Under the pieces are notes generated by a model. That model saw only the letters and a list, made by a program, of their open reading frames with translations, had not been told where the DNA came from and ran no database searches. This document shows, piece after piece, positions 600-41,100 of a stretch of DNA of 64,000 nt. The stretch is from IMG/VR virus record IMGVR_UViG_3300013901_000005, positions 1 through 64,000 of that record; one strand, given 5' to 3'. The position numbers and the translations under genes are program-made. The stretch is from a virus (taxonomy: Duplodnaviria > Caudoviricetes). Position 1 is the stretch's first letter; each line of letters opens with the position of its first letter.

Positions 600-3500
600 A
601 AAGACTGACAAAGCTATTAATGAACTAGTCTATGCCAAATACGATCTGCAGAAAGCGTACAATTATTATAATGGAGTGCGAGATGCGGATTAGTTTAGAT
701 ATTTGGAGGAAGTCTATGGAGCGAATGTTCCTACTACATTACATTTTACACCATTAATCAAAAAGCATATTGACGCTTTGCTTGGTGAGTATCTCGAAAC
801 ACCGATCCTTCCAAAAATACAATGCAAGGACGAAGAGACAATCACGAATATCTATAGGGATAAATAGATAGCCATAGCAAAGGAATCAAGACAGTTTCTT
901 TTATAGAAAATGAAGAATGCTACGTTAAACTAGATTACTGGAAAAGAGACTAATGATGGACTCATAGAGTAGTAGCTAAAATAGCTGATTGAAGATCTAA
1001 ATAAAAATTTTATTTCTGAATATGAAATAGCTGCATAGAATGTTATAGAATATATTATGCAGTCTAGGGATACAGATTTAATGAACGCATTACGGGATAT
1101 GCTTTTTGATTTGCTGGTCACAGGTTATGCATTTTATAGAGTAAAGCCCACTGTAGATAATAACAATATTAAAATTCAGGTACTTAATCCGCTGAATACT
1201 TTTATCGATAGGAATATTGAATCGCCGTATGTCAAAAACTCATATAGAGTTGTGGTTAGGAGTTGGATGTCAAAACAGCAGATTCTCAATATTTACGGTA
1301 AGCGGATGACTGAAGATGATAGGAAGATTCTGGATGAGAAGTGGGGTTCTATATATGAGAACGCATGGTACTACGTACATATGGGAGTTAATAAAAACGG
1401 TGTTCCCGCAACAGACGGTCTTAGAGCCGGTGAGGAAGTTACGCCAGGTTATCCAACGCAGAGTTATAACCTTCACTAGGAATTAATCCCTGTATATAAC
1501 GTAGAGTGGCTGGAAACAGATAAGGATTTCGTAATGCAAAGATATACTACGGTACGTATTGGAGAGGAAATATATATATTAACTGGAAAAGACGAGCATG
1601 TTATTAGAAGTCGTTCAAACCCTACGCAGTGTGGTCTTTCTGTAAATGGATTGTACTTTCTTAATAGGGGGACGAATCCATATTCGATGGTTTTAACATG
1701 CGCATCTTTATAGGATTAACAAAACTAGTTCTAGAAAAATCTCGTGAATTTCTGGGAAGCCGTTTAGGTAATCAGAATCCTAGTCCAATTATTGGATAGG
1801 TTCAACGACTATTATGTAGGGTCAAGTGACCCGAAGTGCGAGAATATTAAATATTTATAATATGAAATTAAATGAAAAAGAATTTAAACAAAAGGTAGCC
1901 GAATTATATAACGGTGAAATAAATATTATTGGGAAATATAAAGGATTAAGTTTTCCAATAATATGTAGTGATAAATATGGCGTATTTAAAATACAAAAAG
2001 CATTTTTATTATTAAAATATAGGCCAACAATAAAAATTGCGATGAATAAAACAGAGTATTTTATGAATATGTTAAAATAGAAATAGCCAAATATTTATAA
2101 TAGCTTAGAACCAATGTCTGAATACATTACTGCTAAACAAAAAATGTTGTTTAAAGATAGATTTGGAATAGTTGCAACAACTCCAGATAATTTAATACAT
2201 GGGCATATTCCAAATATAAAATCAGCAATAAACAGGAAAGATTATTTCAAAAATCAATTATTATTTATATATGGAGATAAATATGATTTTGAAATAACCT
2301 CAACAAATAGACATTTTGGTACTGTTACATTGATTTGTAAAAAGCATGGAAGACAATATATTGACTCGGATTCAATATTTTTAGGATCAGGTTGTCCATG
2401 TTGTAATAAAAAATGGGAAAAAAGCACAACATTTTATTTGGTTAATCTATTTTCTGAGGAAGAAAATTTTTATAAATTAGGAATTTCACATTATGACAAA
2501 AATGGTAATATAAGAAGGTTTAATGAATATAAAAATTTGGGATATAATATTAATATTATATATACACATACATTTGATGATTATATACAATGTAAAGAAT
2601 TTGAATTAAAGTTAAAAAGATTAATTAAATATAATTTATATATTCCAAAAAAATGGCCAAATGAAACATCTACCGAAGCGTTTACAAATGAATTGTTACC
2701 ATTAATTAAGCAAAATTTAATATATGATATAGTCTCAACTTCTGATGAAAGTCAGAGAAACACACGAAGTAACGAATTGTGTTAAAGAAATTGTAGTACG
2801 ATCTCCTTATATTCTACCGTGATAATTTGATTGCCAGTAGTGGTACAATAGGTGACTGGATTGACCAGACACTTATTCCCGCATAGCTTGGCGTTGATCT
2901 TCCTGAAAGGGTAAAAAACTGGATGTCCCTAAAAAAATAGGGCCTTGGTCTTTTGGATTCTTCATAGGAAGGTCGTTTGGCTTCTGGCGCTGCTCCATTG
3001 AATACAATATTCAATGGATTTGACAATACGGTAAAAGCATAGTCAATATAGGCAATATAGATTGCCATAGACTCTATAGAAGCAACTGTGTCGTCAATTA
3101 CAGGTGTATTTAGGGAGCGACTGAATGGTATCCAGCAGAAGGATGCCGTGACAAATGTTAAAATAGGAGCGTAGAATTCTTTTGTCTAGACAAAGCAGTA
3201 TTATCATTAGATGGATTTGATTGTTAATGAACTTTTACTGGATTGTTTAAACTAGGCAAAGATAGTATGGAAGAACGGACTTACTGGAAGCATTGTGCTT
3301 GGTGATAAATACCAAAAGGTATTTACCGCACTTCCAGAATATTTTACGCTTACTGACTTCGATATACGTATTATTACGAGTGCGGATATTGTTAAAGACC
3401 TGGAACAGATACGTGCGATTATTCCTGAATTTGTAAAATCTGGCGGACTTCCCCCGGATATTATCGTAGAGGCCCTTACAAGCAAGAGCATACCGGATCT

Positions 3501-3837: not shown

Positions 3838-4598
3838 TACCAATAATTAAAGTATGTAATATAGGTAAGAATAATATTGTTATTACAGATCTGACGTAGG
3901 ATTCTGACGAATATATTGATGAGAAAATAACAGATACTAACCAATATTACAAATAGAATAGATTTAAGTACAGCGAGACCTGTACTATTAATATTATACA
4001 GAGAAACAAGATTGATAAGGAGGAGGTTGAAGCAACGCTTTTTACCGATCATATTTCATATCTCGACGAGCAGTATTATGAAATCCAATCAGATGGTCAT
4101 TATACGGTATATCATTGTATATTACCTACAGTAAACTGGCTGGAAGGCCAGCTTCAGAATGAATAGAATATCCTTTCGGAGGATATTGATATTTATGTGA
4201 CAGATGGGGAGAATATATATAATTATTGTGAAGGAGAATTAAAGGAAATAGAACCAGTTATACTTGCAAATGCAAATACTGAAAATACGACTATTTCCAG
4301 AGTAGAGGTTGATGAATTTATGGTTTATCAATTATATAATTGCTATATCAGTCTATGTAAAACTCTGTTTAACGATTTAGCAATCAGATGTAAAAAATCT
4401 GGTGATTATGATGAAATAACATATAAAAGGGATTTTCTTTGGATGACTATCAATGTTCTGAAATACCTTGTAGAATTTGGTAATTTTGGAGAGGCTGAAA
4501 GAATTCTTGAAGAAGTTAATTATTGTGGAGGATTTTGCGATGGATCAGAAATGCGGAGTAAATCCGGCTCTGGATGTGGATGCAACAAAGAAGCTTAA
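3834..4598 (+). CDS. Hypothetical virion-module protein with Cys-rich C-terminus (254 aa)
   Basis: ATGA overlap with the portal stop; in frame with ORF 4197..4598; ends CGGFC..GSGCGC. Confidence 0.75.
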
Positions 4599-4761
4599 AA
4601 AGAAAATCATAAAAGATTATGTTCGTATTGTTAAAAGAATGAACAAAGGATATAAAGATGATTTCAGATATATACTCAACGAGATTAGTTTTCTTGGTGT
4701 ATGGAGTAATTTAGATAAACCGAATATAATTTACGAATATTTTATAAATTATGGCATGTAA
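4576..4761 (+). CDS. Small hypothetical protein (start uncertain)
   Basis: C-terminal part of ORF 4477..4761; fills the gap and overlaps both neighbours. Confidence 0.5.
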   Translation: MDATKKLKKKIIKDYVRIVKRMNKGYKDDFRYILNEISFLGVWSNLDKPNIIYEYFINYGM

Positions 4762-5716
4762 TGACCAATTTAGGCATGTGTGTCTAAAGGATTTGGAGGA
4801 CTACATCAAGAGGGATGAATATTTTTCAGATTTCTCCGATGAGGAAAAGGCTATAATTAGAAAAAATCTAGGACTTACTGCATCAGGAGAATCTGACTAC
4901 AATCCTACAATATTCTCTATGACCCATAAAGAAATGACGGAATTTCTATAGGATCACAAAAAATTAAATGTTGGATATATTTATAAAATTACTGATTTCT
5001 AGACAATATATAAAGAAGGTGACTAGGTGTGTGGATTGGATCATATTCCTAGCAAAGTATATTGGATGTATTTAAGGGCAGTTGGTGAATCGACATTTGA
5101 TTCTAGGGTTTTTCTCGTTGATCCAGATGGGAAAGTCAATAGTTGTAGCAAATGGATTGTAGAATATGACATAACTAGACACGAAGTGTCTCCGGGCATA
5201 TATGATAAAGGCCAAATCACATATCTTAAAGATCAATATGGTAATGAGGCTTACTTTGATTTTAAAAACCGAAAAGTTTTAAAAACTGTTGAGGAGCTTA
5301 AAAGTTTTCCAAGATCTTATGACGAGGATACTTACTTCTACACTTTTGATAATGACGGAGAAGATGGTACAGAACACGGGTGGTCAAATAACCATTTAAG
5401 TTCTGACTGTTCTAGAAATATATTTCTAAATGATACTTTTAGCGTATATTTAGAACCACACTGTCATGACAATGTGTTTACAAAAGGATGTATAAATAGT
5501 AGATTTGGATCATATACTTTTAAGAATATTTTTATAAATGCTGTAAACAACTGTAGCGGAACTGTTAGTAATGCTATAATTGGATCCGGAACAGAAACAG
5601 ATCCATTTAAAAGAATTGATGATTTTTCTACAAAATATGCAATAACTCAGCTTGATGAGGATACTGAAACCTTTTAGGTAAAAATGTATGGAAAACAAGA
5701 TACTGGGAATAGCTGA
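4751..5716 (+). CDS. Hypothetical structural protein with short beta-helix-like repeats (321 aa)
   Basis: ORFs 4751 and 5027 joined through TAGs; true stop TGA 5714-5716; KGQITYLKDQYGNEAYFDFKN followed by NxF repeats. Confidence 0.7.
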
Positions 5717-6581
5717 TTAGCCGGATCTTTTATTAAAATCAAAAAAGCCGGCAGAACACTGCTCTGATCAGGTTCTTTTAAAAAATAATTATCTTTCCGA
5801 GTTCTTTACAAAAAGTGATAAGGAAAAGGTTCTTAGAAATCTTGGGATTTTCGATATTATAAATAATATTACCGATACTGGATATATCACAGAGAAGAAA
5901 TTATAGAAACTTCTTGAAGATTATCTTAAAAAAGAAAAAATAGGAGATAGCCCAGAAGATATCGATAATATAGTTTATAATAATGATGATTATCCGGACG
6001 TGAAGACTCTTCATGACGCGCTTGATTTACTGTTATACAAAGATCTTACCATGACAATAAATATAAGCCCATAGATCGCAGAAAAAGGGGATACAGTTGA
6101 ATAGGTTGTTATTACCTGGGATTATAATAAAAAAGTGAAAAGTCAGACGCTTTATAGTTCTGATTATCTAGGAGGGATTTCAATAGAGAATGATTCCAGA
6201 AGTCTTACTGTAAACAAAGATATAAAGACTGGCTGTTCTTTTAAGATTTCCGGTAGCGACAATAAAAAAACCGTTGAAGGAACTGTATCTTTAAAATTTT
6301 ATCCTGGAATATATTATGGTAGTGGAATAGACCAGCCTGATATGAGTACAATATAGAAAACGCTTCGTGCAAACAGATATTGTACGGTAACAGTTAATGC
6401 TAGTTCCGGATAGTATATATGGATATTCTTACCATAGGAATATGGGAATCCTACTTTTACAGTAGGAGGGTTTTCCGGAGGTTTTTATAAGAGTGGTACA
6501 ATAAAGCACAAGGAAACTACATATAATATATGGAGAAGCGATAATCACAGTCTCGGAAATACGACAATTAATATTTCATAA
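5688..6581 (+). CDS. Putative fibre-associated protein (Ig-like C-terminal domains)
   Basis: ATG 5688 to TAA 6581 in the frame of ORF 6135; C-terminus TVNASSGQYIWIFLP..FTVGGFSGGF..WRSDNHSLGNTTINIS. Confidence 0.7.
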
Positions 6582-6583
6582 TT

Positions 6584-9500
6584 ATGGCAGTAGAACTAAT
6601 CAGTGAAATAGTTTAGAAAAACGGAGGGGCCTTCCCACTGTTAGATTCGAATAATCTAAGGGGAGGCTTCTACTCAGTTGATAATATATCAGAACGGGAC
6701 AATATTCCAGAACAGAGAAGAAAGACCGGAATGTTATGTTATGTTAAGGAAGATGAAAAATATTATAAGCTAAACAATGATAATACCTGGGAAGAGGCAA
6801 AATTTGGTGGTGGAGGAATATAGATTTTCGATTAGGAAATGCTAGATGCCGCTGATGAGCTACCAGAGAAATATATTACAATAGCAAATAAGGAAACAGA
6901 TTTAAATGGAAGCACTACTTCCAGGGAGATAAAAGAAACTGGAACATATGTTGATATATTGTTTTCAGCAATAAGAAAATTACAAAGCGAGGTTGCGAAA
7001 TTAAGAAATTCATTCCAGTATGGTATTTATTCATATACTGGAATAAATACCGCAATGTCTCAGCAGGTTGAAGGAATAAGGGATCCAGACGAAGAACCAT
7101 TATGGGCAATTGAAGAAGAGGATCTTTCTTCGGTTTATTCAATGGTTATTGGCCTTGGAAACGATTTGACACCAGAATCAGAAGTAGATGCTAGTGTTGA
7201 CGGAATATTAAAATTAGGAAATAATGTTATCTGGGAATATAAAGAGGATGATGTTTCCGATCCTAAATTATTCTTATATCTTTCAACAACCGGATTAGAT
7301 ATTGATATCAGTCTAGGGGAATATTCTTTTAATTTAAAGGATTTTGATATATCAAAAGCTGATTCTTATAATATTATGATCTGTTTAAACAGAAACAGCG
7401 AAAATAGTTTTATATATTTAAGTATAGGTACTGGTGACAAGACAATAAAAGAGGGATATTTATATAATAACCAAATTGTTAAAGCGCCAAAATATATTAA
7501 TAAAGAATATTCTTTTAAATCAATTATATTTAATAATCTATCACTTTCCAAATTAAATATTTATTCAAAATATTAGGATTTCTCAAAATAGGTTATACCT
7601 AGCGCACCTACTGATTAGGATTATAAATATGGTGCTGCCCATTTGACAATTCGTTCTGTTAAGACAAAGGCTATTTTAGATAGTATTTAGAATTAGCTAC
7701 CAGAGAACGAGTTGATATATGTAGAAAACGAGAAGAGATTGTATATTAAGAATAATTATTCACTTACACAAATTGGAAGTGGTGGAGGATCCCAAACAGA
7801 AGAAGGAATGACGAAAGAAGAATTGTTTAAAGAATTAATAAATATGGGCCTGGTTAAAAATACCGGAACTGAGTAGGCTCCTGTTTATGAAATAAATGAT
7901 TTTGCTGATATCAATTTAGTAAATCAAGATACTGGCAAAATATTTAAAATAAGTGTAAATAGTGATGGATCAATAAGAAGTGATTTGATTCCAGACAATA
8001 CGGAGTTACTCAGTTCTCGTATTTTAAAAAGTGATCTATCACTAGGTTCAACATAGAACGTAAGAGGTTTTATCGGACTTTTAGGTTTGGCTGAAGCTCA
8101 AAAAGCCGGATCTAAATTATTGCTGAGTACAGATATTGGGTTGTATGCTGACCGAATAAAAATAGGAGCTTTCTATGCACCTTTTATTACTGATAAAGTA
8201 TATGGATGCAACAGGGCGTTTATAGAGCTGGAAAACACTTCTGATAAAGACTTTTGCTTGAAAGGGTGCTATCTGCATTTTACAAGGCCTGTAGATAATC
8301 AATAGACTGTATATCATCTTCCTCTTACTGGGACGATAAAAGCTGGAAGTACATATCTTATAGTTGGGAAAGAATATGCTGAACTATATGATAAAAATGT
8401 AGTTATTAAAGTATCTTCATTTGATCAGGAATGGTTTGAAAATGGAGAATTAATTGATTTCTCGATTAATCCAGAAGACAAAGATAAAAAATTAGGATAT
8501 GGTTTTGCAATTACCTACGGTAATAAAGATCTTTCATATGATACGTCTTTGTATAAGAAATCATCATCAGAAGACTTGGCAAAACTATCTGAAATATCTT
8601 TATCTACCTCTGATTTTCCTAGAGTATATGACAATAGTTTTATTGATGCTATATATTATTATAATATGGTAGTAGACGCATCAAATGTTGGTAGGTGGGC
8701 TTCCACAGCAGTTTCAATCACATCAAATACAATGTATAAGAATATGTTTGAATTGGATCCTGCAAAACAAGCATTTCAAAGCCTAAACAAAAAGGATAGT
8801 TCTAGGGCAAGATGGGATAACACTAATGATATATGGGTAATGGATTTGTCTAGCCCGATTATCAAGTTCCCTCATTCTGATGATACTTATGATATAGGTT
8901 ATTTCTCTCCAAAGGCCTCTTACGAAAAGAAGAACGTAGCAACGGATAAATCCAAATTGGATTCAACAAAACCAAATATGGTTACTTGCTCTTTTGGAGT
9001 TGACATATATACAACTAGATGCTTTAACTGGATTTCTGTAGGATATTATGATGAATATCTATATCTTAGAAAACGCGGAGAAACAGAATGGAAAAAGTTT
9101 GAATCCTACAAAGGAGACTCTTCCGAATTTTCAGCACAAGAAGAATATCCAAGAAGAAAAGCATATAAGGAAAGTACAATTAATATTATATATAAAAGAA
9201 TTGCAAATAGATTTCCAGGAGATAATACTTTCTATACAGCACATAAGTGTGTGATAGAATTGAGTGACGAAAATCCAGCATCTCCAATCGTTTATGAATA
9301 TAAGGTTGGAAGGGATGATTGCGAATCCGATATTTAGACATTTACAATATATCCGAAATCCTATCGTCCAGTTATTTACCAAGTAACTGATTAGTAGGGA
9401 TTCCACTGGGTTGAATACTAGGTATGGGCAGCCGCAGCTACAGAAGTTTATGATAAAATCAAGACAGACCAGGAGACAAACAATATAATACCAATATTAA

Positions 9501-35462: not shown

Positions 35463-35822
35463 ATGGAGGATTTTACTGAATACGATATTAAGCCAAAAGG
35501 TTTTGTTAATTATTTAAGATATCATGGACATCATCTGAATAAAGAATTATGCGAGTACATTTGCAGATAGTAGTTTGATAACCAATATACAAAAGATGAT
35601 TATATGAATTTTTGTACAAATAATAACGCTATATGCGAAGAGAAAAATATTTATGATAAAGTTTATCTGTATAATTATTATCGACATTTAAATCTAGATG
35701 ACTAGATTATATTATAGATAATATGCGCAATATTGGAAAAAGAACCGAATATGATATTTAATAGGGTATTGGCAGATTCTGCAAAACTCGGAATATCAAT
35801 TGATTGGGAAGATTTTATATAA
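35463..35822 (+). CDS. Hypothetical protein (119 aa)
   Basis: MEDFTEYDIKPKGFVNYLRYHGHHLNKELCEY..GISIDWEDFI; open under TAG=Gln. Confidence 0.7.
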
Positions 35823-35831
35823 AAAAAATAT

Positions 35832-35862
35832 TTTGATTATTTAAAATAAATAATTAAATTTG
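35832..35862 (+). promoter_or_regulatory. Bacteroidota-type promoter (-33 TTTG, 19-nt spacer, -7 TAAATTTG)
   Basis: Exact match to the TTTG / TAnnTTTG consensus, directly upstream of the structured non-coding region. Confidence 0.7.
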
Positions 35863-35868
35863 TGATGA

Positions 35869-36191
35869 TAGGATTCAAGACCCGGGAATCTCAATCGCCC
35901 TCATTCCGATGCAACGATCAAGGGGAGGGCCGGACTAGGGTAGTAGGTGCGCGGTTGAAATAATATCGAAACATAGCGCTGAGGTTCAAATCTAGCTGTC
36001 AAATTCATACATATAAACGAAAAGCAGTACGCCTGCGAGTCAAAGGTTGGGGGCACAAAGGTACTTTTAGGTTAGGAAATCTTATTTCCGAGACACCTTT
36101 TCGGGAAGTTGTATGATTAGGGGAATTAGCGATTTTTCCCCTGTAAAACTACTAGGGCGAATTATATCTATACTTTTTTAGTATAGATATA
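35869..36191 (+). ncRNA. Candidate structured non-coding RNA of unknown class
   Basis: GC-enriched island with no listed ORF, between a promoter and a terminal hairpin; closing stem TCGCCCT/AGGGCGA and several internal hairpins. Confidence 0.55.
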
Positions 36192-36251
36192 TGTAAAATA
36201 TTGACTATCAATTATTTACGTAAAAAATAGATAATTGATAGTCTTTTTTAT

Positions 36252-36282
36252 TTTGATAATTAATAAAAAATAATTATATTTG
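36252..36282 (+). promoter_or_regulatory. Bacteroidota-type promoter (-33 TTTG, 19-nt spacer, -7 TATATTTG)
   Basis: Consensus match ending 4 nt before ATG 36287. Confidence 0.65.
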
Positions 36283-36286
36283 TAAT

Positions 36287-36754
36287 ATGGAATTACTTTT
36301 AAAACGTATTGCCAAAAAGAAAGAATATACAATTGGAAAGTTGTATATTGATAATAAGTATTTCTGTGATACACTTGAAGATACTGATAGAAATCTGAAA
36401 TAGTCAATGTCAGAAAGCGAGATTAAGAAAATAAAGATTCCTGGAAAAACAGCAATCCCTATCGGAATATATAGAATAAATATGAATGTTGTAAGTCCGA
36501 AGTTTGGAAGTAAGGCTTTTTACAAAGCTGTTTGTAATGGGAAAATTCCTAGATTAATGGAAGTCCCTGGATTTCAAGGAATTCTAATACACTCTGGAAA
36601 TGGCTCATCTGAAACTGACGGATGTTTACTCGTAGGAAAAAATAAAGTTATAGGGAAAGTATTAGAATCACAGAATACTTTTACAAGATTAGTACGGGAT
36701 TATTTAATCCCAGCCAATAAAAGAAACGAATCAATTAAAATAGCAATTCAATGA
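36287..36754 (+). CDS. DUF5675-like (L,D-transpeptidase-fold) protein, putative endolysin; single TAG
   Basis: MELLLKR..YTIGKLYID..FCDTLED..TAIPIGIY..VPGFQGILIHSGN..TDGCLLVG. Confidence 0.75.
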
Positions 36755-37086
36755 ATTGGTTAAAAGAAAGTAATCGTACTGAGCATTTAAGATACGGTTA
36801 TATATTAGCCTGTTACCTTTCTGTAGTATTTACGGCAGGTTGTGCTGTAGGTATGGAATTTAAGGATTGGCAATATGGTGGTAAGTTTGACTGGCTGGAT
36901 ATTGCCGCTACTATTATCGGTGGTATTTTAGGTTAGGTTATTCAGTTAGGATGGATATTATTATTGTGTTTAACAATAAAATATAGTAGTGTATGGTATT
37001 GTATTGGATTATTCTTTTATTTATATGCAATATCCAATATAAACTATAGGCTATTTAAGAATGGACAGATAAAGAAAGAGAGATAA
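36751..37086 (+). CDS. Small multi-pass membrane protein, possibly lysis-associated
   Basis: ORF 36751 extended through TAG to TAA 37086; MEFKD..FDWLDIAATIIGG; hydrophobic. Confidence 0.65.
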
Positions 37087-38168: not shown

Positions 38169-41100
38169 ATGTTAGTTGCTAGTTTTACATCAAGAATCCC
38201 TACAATGGGTGAAGTTGTTTGCCCATTTAAAATTCTGTGGATTGCTGGGAACCCTCCGATATACTAACATATTTTATTTGGGTAATCAGCAGCCTAGTAT
38301 TTTTAAATAAAGGTTCAACGACTACTAAGCGCAGAATAATATAATGATATAGTCTGATCTTATAAAATGGTAAATTATAAGTTAACAAAATGCAAACTAA
38401 GACATATGAGGATTGGTCAAAGTATCTCGGTGCTCGTCCGAAGCGCCTGGGTGTTGTAGCCCGTATGTACACTGATAACACTTTGAGTTATCTTACCGAT
38501 GGTTTGCGTAATATTTTCTATAAGGATGAGAAGGCAAATACCTTCCAGATTTCTGATTCACTTCTTTTTGAGTGGCAGACAGAGGTAAATAATATTAAGC
38601 ATGTTGAGTTTGCTGACCGCCCGTCTACCGATGGCGCAAATGGTTCGGAAATCACAATGGCATTTGTCGAGAACTATTATAATAAGTTTGATATCTTCCG
38701 TATTGACGGAAGCCGTCAGCAGTGTATCGTAGTTTCTCATCCTATTCGCAAGCGTGATAAATATTTCCAATAATTGTCTCGCTTTAAATAAATTCTTTAA
38801 ATTGCTGGAAAGCATTTATTGTAACCAGCAGCGTGATTGTTGTAACAATAGCGTTCAACGACTAGATGAAAATCATAAATTAATTTTAAAAACTGAATTA
38901 CAAATGAAATATATAGTATTTTTAACAACCGGTCTGAAAACAAATAGAAATCTTGTAGGAGTGCATAAGACAAATACACCTGATATTTTTGATGGATATT
39001 TAGGAGATGGAGTTGAGGCAGACAAAGCCAGTTCATTTATGTATCCGAAATCAGCATTTCAGTATGACGTTAAGATGACCGGAAGTAAGAGTTACCGTAG
39101 AATAACCATTGCAACCTGCGATACATATAAGGAAGCCTGTGCTAAGGCAAATAAGATTATCGACAATATTATAGATGATACATCATATTATAATTTTGAA
39201 AGAATTGATTCCCGTACAGTATATCAGTATGATCTTGTTGGAAAGTTAAAGAGAAAATGGAATTTTATGGAAATTGCAGATTTCTATAATTATCCGCAGG
39301 AAAGAATTAAGTGCTTTATTGATTTAAAAGTATCTTTTTCCGATTCTTTTTGGTCTTTTGATAAGTATATTGATATTAATGAATATAATGATAATTTTAT
39401 AAATCATGTTACATATATTTATAATAAGAACGGGAAACTGATAAAGGTTTACAGCAATTATGATGATGCGATAAAGTTTTTAAATTGTCCGGTAAAACAG
39501 GCGCTGGATGCGATAAAGACACAGAGAGACATAAACGGATATTATATTTCCAATAAACTATACAGCCTTTTTGAACCGAAACCAAGGAGACAGAATAAGT
39601 CACAGATATTCCACGTTTATAAGGATACCGGGGAATATCTCGGAGCGTATAAAGGAAAGACCGTAATGAAGGTTATCAATCAACATTCATGGAAAAAGAT
39701 CTCGAATACTTTCAACCTATATGGTGGGTGGTATAAGGACTTTTATCTTTCACTGGTTACTGTGGATAAAATCCCAGAAAGGCCATGGAAAAAGAAGGTA
39801 GAGGTTTACGACAAGGATGGAAAGCTAATTGAGACTGTTTATAATCTAAATATACTTGGATCAAAATATAAAGTTCCTAAAAACAAAATTGTCGATATTC
39901 AGCAGGGAAATAAATATTATGGTGATTATATATTTAAATACTATAGTAAATGATATAGTCTAAATGAATTATTGGGAGCTCCAGGTACGTCTCATAGATA
40001 ATACCTATGATACTACCTTGGATCTCAATTATTGTAATCCGGGTGATACTACCACTTTCCAATCGGTAGCACAACCTGAATTAAGCGAGGAAGGCGAAGT
40101 AGTTGAAAATGAGTTACTTTCCTCCGTTAATATTAATATTTAACGAAAAATTAAATAAATATTCTTAATTGCTGGAAGGCTGAATTATGCTAATCAGCAG
40201 CGATTCTCTAAATAATAAACAAAGAGAACGTTCAACGACTAATCCAAATGGATGTAGGGGAGGTAACCCCGAAATGGAATAAATCTAAAATTTGAATACT
40301 GCGTCAAGGCAGGATATAAAAACGCAAAACAAGTCACCTTGGGCAAACGAAACGTTTGTAAAGGTTTTGTATTTAAATATTTAGATTAAGATATAGTCTG
40401 AACAATATGGAAACATATTGATTAACACAAATTGTACTCAAAGTTCCAGTCCAATATGGAACTTCATCGCAACTATATGACAACCTTCCGTTGTGACGCA
40501 AGCTGGTCTAGCCTCTACGCACTTCAGGAAGATGTATTTATGCGTATTGCTGACGATACGGATAAATCAAAGGGCGAAGGTGTTTACAAGATGTTGAAGA
40601 AGGAGAAGGAACTCCTCGATACATTTATGTACGCCATGAATACAGGGTTGAGAATAACAGCTCTGTCTAAATTCTTCTAATTGCTGGGAAAACCATTTAA
40701 TGGTTTATCAGCAGCTAAGATATTTAAATTAGTGGGAAACAATTTTTATATAATGTTCAACGACTATCCGAGTAAGGGTAGGTATTTAAAATACCAAAAT
40801 GGAGAATAATTTAAAATATATTGTATATCAAACAATAAATATAGTAAATAATAAAATATATATTGGAATCCACGGAACAAAAGATCCAATGAGATTTGAT
40901 GGATATATAGGAAATGGCGTTAATATAAATTATCCATCAACTTATATGAATCCAAAATTTCCATTTCAATTTGCAGTAAAAAAATATGGAACTTCAAATT
41001 TCAAAAGAAGTGTATTGTATATATATAATACAGAAATTGAAGCTCTTTTAAAAGAAGAGGAAATTGTAAATGAAGATTTTATAAAAAGGAACGACACATA

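Follow-up and report, generated by a model that had tools for sequence, protein, structure and literature searches.

The locus examined here raises the question of what is encoded by a GC-rich stretch without a reading frame that lies just upstream of a putative lysin gene in an AT-rich phage genome. The window, namely the whole stretch of DNA that was analysed, comprises the first 64 kb of a 155,233-bp IMG/VR virus record. As the first-pass annotation had described, the stretch is an island in its composition, with a GC content of 0.41-0.50 over positions 35850-36150 against 0.14-0.30 on both flanks, and it contains no plus-strand ORF of 60 aa or more under table 11 or with TAG read as glutamine. 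The same annotation had proposed a novel, independently expressed structured RNA of the phage, and the data presented below, including a conserved promoter, a conserved terminator, a separate promoter for the lysin gene and the covariation of paired positions, lend support to this proposal at the sequence level. The fold energy of the island is mild on either strand relative to shuffled sequences (z = -2.3 on the plus strand and -2.0 on the minus strand), and the case therefore rests on comparative data.

The genome appears to use a modified genetic code, since TAG must be a sense codon for the long plus-strand frames (e.g., 14 in-frame TAG codons in a 751-aa frame). A suppressor tRNA with the anticodon CUA is encoded at genome positions 151589-151662, within the 131-152 kb region where the tRNAs of the genome cluster. 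In the same region, ARAGORN in intron mode called a tRNA-Cys (GCA) with a 109-nt intron on the minus strand (genome 144080-144266), either a spurious prediction or a genuine tRNA gene with an intron. The 5′ neighbour of the island is a complete gene for a DUF7841 protein (35463-35822; profile positions 6-113 of 114 matched). The 3′ neighbour is the plus-strand gene of an L,D-carboxypeptidase-type lysin (DUF5675; 36287-36754) with a TAG at codon 39, followed on the same strand by a gene whose translation gives a holin-like membrane protein of 111 aa (36751-37086) with a TAG at codon 62. The lysin and its homologues are listed under PF18925, the phrog_1501 match covers most of the family profile, and the closest GenBank relatives of the lysin belong to crAss-like Bacteroides phages (50-61% identity), the tblastn matches being annotated as L,D-carboxypeptidase. 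The large structural proteins examined for taxonomy gave no informative match in PHROG and Pfam and no match by tblastn; the label "crAss-like" is therefore based on relatives of the lysin, on the type of promoter and on TAG recoding. The number of in-frame TAG codons in the lysin and holin-like genes ranges from 0 to 3 among relatives, and codon 62 of the holin-like gene is CAG or CAA in L020 and L010, indicating that TAG gating of the lysis genes is not fixed.

Homologues of the island were traced from metagenome lysin relatives to their contigs, and exact-motif scans were added, giving 17 distinct sequences (alignment A2); these represent about five lineages, and the independent compensatory events discussed below are therefore modest in number. 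The homologues are 72-99% identical, all 17 are placed between the lysin gene and one and the same upstream spacer, and every one traced through the lysin has a spacer of about 463 nt upstream of that gene. In L014 and L015, the RNA and the lysin are retained and the upstream genes differ. In L023, a 167-kb relative, the gene order is the same, the spacer measures just 86 nt and the RNA is lacking; covariance model R1 found no copy over the 6.4-kb L023 locus. These patterns indicate that the RNA is an accessory unit linked to the lysin side. The upstream island is likewise absent from distant lysin relatives in IMG/VR (L002-L005), and neither R1 nor the module model R2 had a match in the whole genomes G002-G004, which are complete crAss-like genomes of about 100 kb. 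In the genome under study, R1 scores 319 bits at 35867-36165 and finds a single copy in 155 kb. The core is 75-93% identical between lineages and the lysin DNA 72-78%, showing conservation that at least equals that of the flanking coding genes.

Motif scans in phage contigs also gave related RNAs of three further types, B, C and D, with the window RNA designated type A. A blastn search with the window RNA and types B and C against 50,697 GenBank phages gave no match, and R2, applied to look for a cellular source from which the phage might have captured the RNA, matched none of 151 sampled Bacteroidota genomes, which is a weak test with strict filters. Nine exact-motif matches in 185,579 species genomes (L040-L048) were all located inside long ORFs without flanking helices and were rejected as coding-sequence coincidences, and L025, L026, L027, L031 and L039 were discarded as chance pattern matches. 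Literature searches on non-coding or structured RNA in Crassvirales retrieved no account of such an RNA, which is not proof of its absence.

How the island would be transcribed can be read from its borders. A perfect -33/-7 promoter had been recognised upstream of the island, and the perfect pattern match at 35832-35862 on the plus strand, of the Bacteroidota type with TTTG at -33 and TAAATTTG at -7 separated by N19, agrees with this; both boxes are kept in all relatives, and the promoter is presumably active. The RNA had been thought to start about 7 nt past this promoter, at 35869; the start is better placed at 35867, where the first helix begins 5 nt past the -7 box and covaries at three positions. 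At the other end, the 12-bp hairpin at 36163-36191 that had been taken as the end of the RNA is indeed present, AU-rich and found in most relatives, but it is lost in L013 and L017 and is not followed by a U-run. The conserved terminator is instead the next hairpin on the plus strand, a putative intrinsic terminator at 36203-36249 with a 13-bp stem (36203-36215/36231-36243) and a run of UUUUUU (36244-36249). All relatives retain its stem, with one-sided changes that yield G.U pairs, workable on the plus strand only; owing to the scarcity of G-C pairs in the stem, a simple scanner did not report this terminator.

A second, near-identical promoter pattern for the lysis cassette follows at 36252-36282 on the plus strand, its -33 box abutting the U-run of the terminator, and it is almost invariant in relatives. 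The lysin ATG (36287) lies 5 nt past its own box, the same spacing as that between the RNA and its promoter. These two are the only intergenic plus-strand matches to the motif in the window. In the RNA-lacking L023, positions 2915-3000 contain a terminator hairpin and a -7-like box about 27 nt before the lysin ATG; this different spacing indicates that the near-leaderless arrangement is specific to the RNA-bearing clade. From these elements, host sigma-A RNA polymerase would start at about 35867 and stop at the terminator, releasing an RNA of about 380 nt, and the unit of promoter, RNA and terminator would have been inserted between the genes of the DUF7841 protein and the lysin.

The extended motif TTTGAT...AATTAWATTTG has three strong AT-rich copies in the 155-kb genome: one stands before the RNA, one before the lysis cassette and one before a minus-strand unit of an acidic ORF and the suppressor tRNA. 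The third copy is located at genome 152165-152135 on the minus strand (TTTGAT...AATTATATTTG), and its unit (152165-151589) comprises an acidic ORF of about 135 aa that is free of TAG and, some 50 nt further on, the suppressor tRNA-CUA. Canonical host-type promoters may thus serve three units only, namely the suppressor tRNA, the lysis cassette and the RNA.

The sharing of extended promoters among these units is the main attraction of a circuit of TAG recoding and lysis timing, in which binding of the RNA to the suppressor tRNA-CUA, or to some other translation factor, would time the translation of those late and lysis genes that contain TAG. The window RNA also has slightly more UAG triplets than expected (11 versus 6.0, p about 0.03). 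Several observations weigh against such a circuit: L023 reads TAG as glutamine and has no RNA at the site, the UAG count ranges from 6 to 13 across relatives, and the 73% of the type C genome that was examined has no suppressor tRNA and no clear recoding. Mimicry of the TAG site of the holin-like gene was rejected as well, because the 12-nt identity between 36065-36076 and 36926-36937 is not kept in relatives. We therefore consider a TAG circuit very improbable.

The comparative evidence for a folded RNA was obtained from a structure of 81 proposed pairs, derived with RNAalifold and refined manually. In alignment A2, 96.4% of the 1377 cells are standard pairs, compared with 41-50% after a shift of the 3′ partners by 1-3 columns. 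Changes on both sides occur in 18 of the 81 pairs (1-6 when slid), and the covariation score is 0.187 (at most 0.076 when slid). An all-against-all analysis of column covariation was swamped by phylogenetic signal. With respect to the strand, pairing falls from 96.4% on the plus strand to 83.8% if the minus strand is read; G.U pairs account for 189 cells and form the majority at 12 of the 81 pairs. As these G.U pairs fit the plus strand only, the plus-strand RNA is the functional form. The covariation among homologues that the first-pass annotation had called for is thus strong and strand specific in the 17 distinct sequences, and we conclude with high confidence that the island encodes a real and novel structured RNA, read from the plus strand and maintained by selection.

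The same data bear on the view that the island acts as DNA, as a replication origin, a packaging site or a set of protein-binding palindromes, and not as RNA. The type C copy does have recA and 5-6 tandem copies of a 16-nt repeat as neighbours, in an intergenic region between divergent genes, and perfect AU-rich hairpins follow the core in the window. Nevertheless, the 189 G.U cells would turn into A.C mismatches in cruciform DNA or if the opposite strand were read, and the compensatory changes keep pairing and not sequence. Further, the island and its surroundings are free of tandem repeats, and the cumulative GC skew shows no turn here. A purely DNA-level element is, in our judgement, hardly credible.

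The conserved core of the RNA extends over about 300 nt (35867-36165, plus strand), as delimited by the R1 score, covariation and identity, and is composed of two domains. Domain 1 (35867-36000) is a four-way junction of H1, H2, H3 and the H4 arm, recognised by covariation. H1 (35867-35871/35996-36000) pairs GAUAG with CUGUC and has changed on both sides in 3 of its 5 pairs, occurring as GAUAG/CUGUC, GAUAG/CUAUC, UACAG/CUGUA and GGUAG/CUACC. H2 (35872-35876/35886-35890) has changed on both sides in 4 of 6 pairs, and the H3 hairpin (35897-35930) in 2 pairs. The H4-H5-H6 module (35935-35995), on which R2 scores 90 bits, is common to all four RNA types and consists of H4 (35935-35939/35991-35995), H5 (35946-35950/35976-35980) and H6 (35952-35955/35965-35968), the last with the loop UGAAAUAAU and a register set by cross-type comparison. 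It also contains the conserved internal-loop strands UAGUA and GAGGUU and the bulge AAACAUAG. The RNAalifold register of H5 and the first register of H6 (UUGA/UCGA) were superseded after the cross-type comparison.

Domain 2 (36005-36116, plus strand) is closed by H7 (36005-36011/36110-36116) and H8 (36018-36024/36097-36103). H7 is invariant within the family, and types C and D swap in other complementary sequences; H8 has changed on both sides in 3 pairs. The domain further includes an inner helix of AGUAC/GUACU (36026-36030/36061-36065), a variable hairpin (36075-36089) and the conserved strings UAUAAA, GGUUGGGGG, UUUUAGGUUA, AGACACC and GGAAGU. Downstream of it, a 3′ hairpin of UAGGGGAA and UUCCCCUG (36118-36143) covaries, with a G-C to A-U change in L020 and G.U, G-C and A-U all found at one pair. 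The 3′ tail carries an unpaired CUAGGG (36152-36157), of which UAGGG is invariant in 17 of 17 sequences and the C is replaced by A in L037. A T-loop reading of GGUUCAAAUC was dropped, as it is not kept in types B to D, and a pseudoknot of GAGGU with ACCUU was rejected because it clashes with the covarying H8.

This fold retains two of the five pairings that had been read from the single sequence. The hairpins of GGATTC with GAATCT at the 5′ end and of AGGGGAA with TTCCCCT are both preserved among relatives through compensatory changes. The long-range pairing of TCGCCCT (35895) with AGGGCGA (36154), on the other hand, is reduced in most relatives to 4 possible base pairs (CCCU/AGGG). The segment GCCCUC pairs locally with GAGGGC and covaries with it, G-C changing to A-U six times and C-G to U-A three times; the positions flanking CCCU covary with this local partner, and the two alternative conformers that had been suggested find no support. 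Two other proposed helices were abandoned. The pairing of GTAGGTGCGC with GTACGCCTGC fails in relatives, where GGUGC pairs with GCGCU. That of TTCCGAGA with TTTCGGGA is allowed in single sequences, but its register shifts between lineages, and it competes with the better-supported pairing of CGAAAAG (36018-36024) with CUUUUCG (36097-36103) and with the hairpin at 36075-36089, both of which have a fixed register.

Because the phage carries introns, the fold must also be compared with that of group I introns. Several are found in the capsid gene of the window, two of them above the Rfam threshold (38201-38375 and 40095-40420), and homing-endonuclease genes adjoin types B and C, so that the island might be a group I intron that has degenerated or stands free, or what remains of such an intron. 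However, the group I model RF00028 does not match the island even at E up to 10, and the helix order, in our own reading of the fold, lacks the P3/P7 arrangement. The H4-H6 module is absent from the introns of the phage itself, and both neighbouring genes are complete, leaving no exons to join. An origin in a group I intron is thus extremely improbable. The first-pass annotation had likewise seen no resemblance to tRNA, tmRNA or a group I core, and ARAGORN found no tRNA or tmRNA genes in the window.

Comparison with Rfam 15 (4227 models) identified no known family at its gathering threshold at the island; the set includes riboswitches, small ribozymes, RNase P, GOLLD, ROOL, pRNA, T-box and GIR1, as well as 6S, SRP and Y RNA. 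With E up to 10 over 35700-36350, the sole matches were mir-1302 (18.7 bits, threshold 62) and GEBRO (13.2 bits, threshold 284.7), in line with the first-pass expectation of novelty. In the loci of the type B and type C copies, Rfam also gave no match at the RNA. Other candidates were rejected on different grounds. The template RNA of a retron (msr-msd), a DRT or a DGR was set aside, as the island is single-copy and RVT_1 found no reverse transcriptase in the 155-kb genome, where the controls were matched; a type III antitoxin RNA of the ToxI kind was set aside, as 35700-36400 contains no tandem repeats. Concerning antisense targets, 12 hits of 12 nt were found in the phage genome against 9.65 expected, which is not above chance.

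The related RNA types provide an independent view of both fold and context. Type B is represented by L029, L034 (minus strand), L061 and L063-L065, type C by L038 from a 110-kb record, and type D by L062 (IMGVR_UViG_3300029448_000024), on the minus strand at about 4576-4870 of a 65-kb record. All three share the helix order of the window RNA with different helix sequences. On the H4-H6 arm, R1 scores 51-52 bits in type B (L029 and L034) and 16.5 bits in type C, and R2 scores 47 bits on type C; in the type B relatives, the shared arm is up to 93% identical. A module alignment of 12 sequences from types A, B and C has 98% of cells paired, compared with 30-41% when slid. Between types A and D, the helices and their order match and the spacing nearly so, D having the same four-way junction, with different sequences in H1 (ACAGC/GCUGU), H4 (UUGGG/CCCAA), H5 (ACUGC/GCGGU), H6 (GCCU/AGGC), H7 (CGACAC/GUGUCG) and H8 (CUCGG/CCGAG). 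The strings conserved across types are UAGUA, GAGGUU, the loop UGARAUAAY, AAACAUAG, UAUAAA, UUAGG, AGACRCC and GGAARU, among which UAGUA and GAGGUU probably form a loop-E-like internal loop.

The genomic positions of these types differ. Type D lies directly 5′ of a holin gene (phrog_3427, E = 1e-20), which is followed by a gene for an 844-aa secreted protein, and neither a terminator nor a consensus promoter was found between the RNA and the holin gene. Type B follows a Bacteroidota-type promoter and precedes an HNH endonuclease gene (L065, RNA at 6390-6660) or a small ORF and a GIY-YIG-like ORF (L029, RNA at 1300-1600, and L034), and no terminator was recognised between the type B RNAs and the ORFs that follow them. 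In L063, L064 and L065, ATGGCACAT occurs before the RNA and again at the start of the next ORF (the HNH gene in L065), which looks like a duplicated gene start. Type C occupies part of a 1.4-kb intergenic region between divergent genes, with recA and a gene for a SegE-type endonuclease as neighbours; about 200 nt past the RNA, L038 carries 5-6 tandem copies of the 16-nt CTAGCTAGTTTAAATT (4595-4682), and these repeats may be origin iterons. All four types are co-directional with the downstream genes and stand at the start of gene blocks. Adjacency to lysis genes is found for the window RNA and type D and not for types B and C.

These contexts must be weighed for the mechanism, and the main rival to a stand-alone RNA gene is a cis-acting leader of the lysis/late unit, which would control the passage of polymerase beyond 36203-36249 into the lysin, holin-like and capsid genes. 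By analogy, such a leader could be a riboswitch-like sensor or an RNA that makes polymerase resistant to termination, as in HK022 put or EAR. The layout fits, as the RNA is flanked by a promoter and a terminator, lysis and capsid genes come next in the same orientation, and the whole resembles the lambda arrangement PR'-6S-tR'-S-R-Rz. The missing terminators between types B and D and their next ORFs suit a leader better than a stand-alone gene, type D stands straight before a holin gene, and the shared orientation of all four types at the head of their gene blocks points the same way; types B and D could be leaders. Nevertheless, the almost invariant promoter of the lysin gene lies after the terminator, where a leader would have no need of it. 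The terminator itself is conserved, and neither an antiterminator pairing nor any conserved alternative pairing of the 3′ part of the RNA with the 5′ strand of the terminator was found by eye. Types B and C are not beside lysis genes, and known antitermination RNAs are far smaller than the window RNA. On balance, a leader is an unlikely explanation of the window RNA, albeit one to be taken seriously.

A stand-alone gene is favoured because the conserved terminator and the conserved second promoter insulate the lysin gene. Since the lysin keeps a near-identical promoter of its own, we infer that the RNA acts as a folded molecule in trans, where it would be a ribozyme, or a scaffold or decoy that engages a protein or another RNA, and would not work by long antisense pairing. 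Taken as a whole, the statement that the island is a stand-alone gene for an uncatalogued structured RNA seems to us somewhat probable, and action in trans, as a separate part of this statement, is plausible but falls a little short of probable. The position at the lysis block and the holin gene next to type D suggest a role at the lysis or a late stage.

The novelty of this finding lies in the RNA family and its fold, the mechanism being only proposed. The RNA comes from phage contigs of the human gut, which possess promoters of the Bacteroidota type and a crAss-like lysin, and the sequence set, the secondary structure and the covariance models R1 and R2 make it directly testable. Large and intricate bacterial or phage RNAs that belong to no family are rare, and those that have been solved are ribozymes, ribonucleoprotein cores or self-assembling particles. 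We put forward, as a speculation that will more probably fail than hold, that the four types belong to a new class of complex-folded phage RNAs, with at least four types in unrelated phage genomes, which is either a new ribozyme or a timing device for lysis and late genes; a device of the latter kind would act, for example, on RNA polymerase or a lysis factor. The features proposed for this class are the four-way junction, the loop-E-like internal loop, the 9-nt UGARAUAAY loop and a second domain of two helices. Control of lysis or of late transcription by this RNA, if true, would amount to a switch made of RNA in phages about whose gene regulation hardly anything is known.

Several known systems share features with this unit. 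The packaging RNA of phi29 is also a structured RNA that a phage encodes as a separate transcript, within the structural gene block or close to it; the window RNA differs in having no Rfam match and no identified loop-loop complementarity, and the phage type is unrelated. The group I introns of the same phage are likewise GC-rich structured islands in an AT-rich genome, and homing-endonuclease genes lie near some relatives of the window RNA as well, but the latter has neither an RF00028 match nor exons and possesses another helix topology. ToxI and similar RNA antitoxins show the same succession of promoter, RNA, terminator and a gene whose product can potentially kill the cell; unlike them, the window RNA is one complex fold, not a series of short repeat units, and the downstream gene has its own promoter.

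The lambda PR'-6S RNA-tR' segment and the HK022 put/EAR elements are similar in that a host-type promoter gives a short transcript whose terminator stands just before lysis and late genes. The differences are that the lysin in the window has a separate promoter after the terminator, that the window RNA is far larger and more elaborately folded, and that no Q-like factor or read-through is known for it. GOLLD and ROOL, orphan RNAs that occur mainly in phages and prophages, resemble the window RNA as large, multi-helix, conserved phage RNAs that have no coding potential and were recognised by covariation. Their sizes are about 580 and 800 nt, compared with the core of about 300 nt here, and the window RNA matches neither family in Rfam and is found in phages with Bacteroidota-type promoters.

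Finally, the unit as a whole can be compared with phage morons, which have their own host-type promoter and terminator, a GC content unlike that of their surroundings and a site that is empty in a syntenic relative. For the unit described here, a promoter and a terminator, both predicted at the sequence level, an atypical composition and the empty site in L023 were all found. The unit differs from a typical moron in that its cargo is an RNA and not a protein, and in that it carries a near copy of the promoter of the downstream gene.
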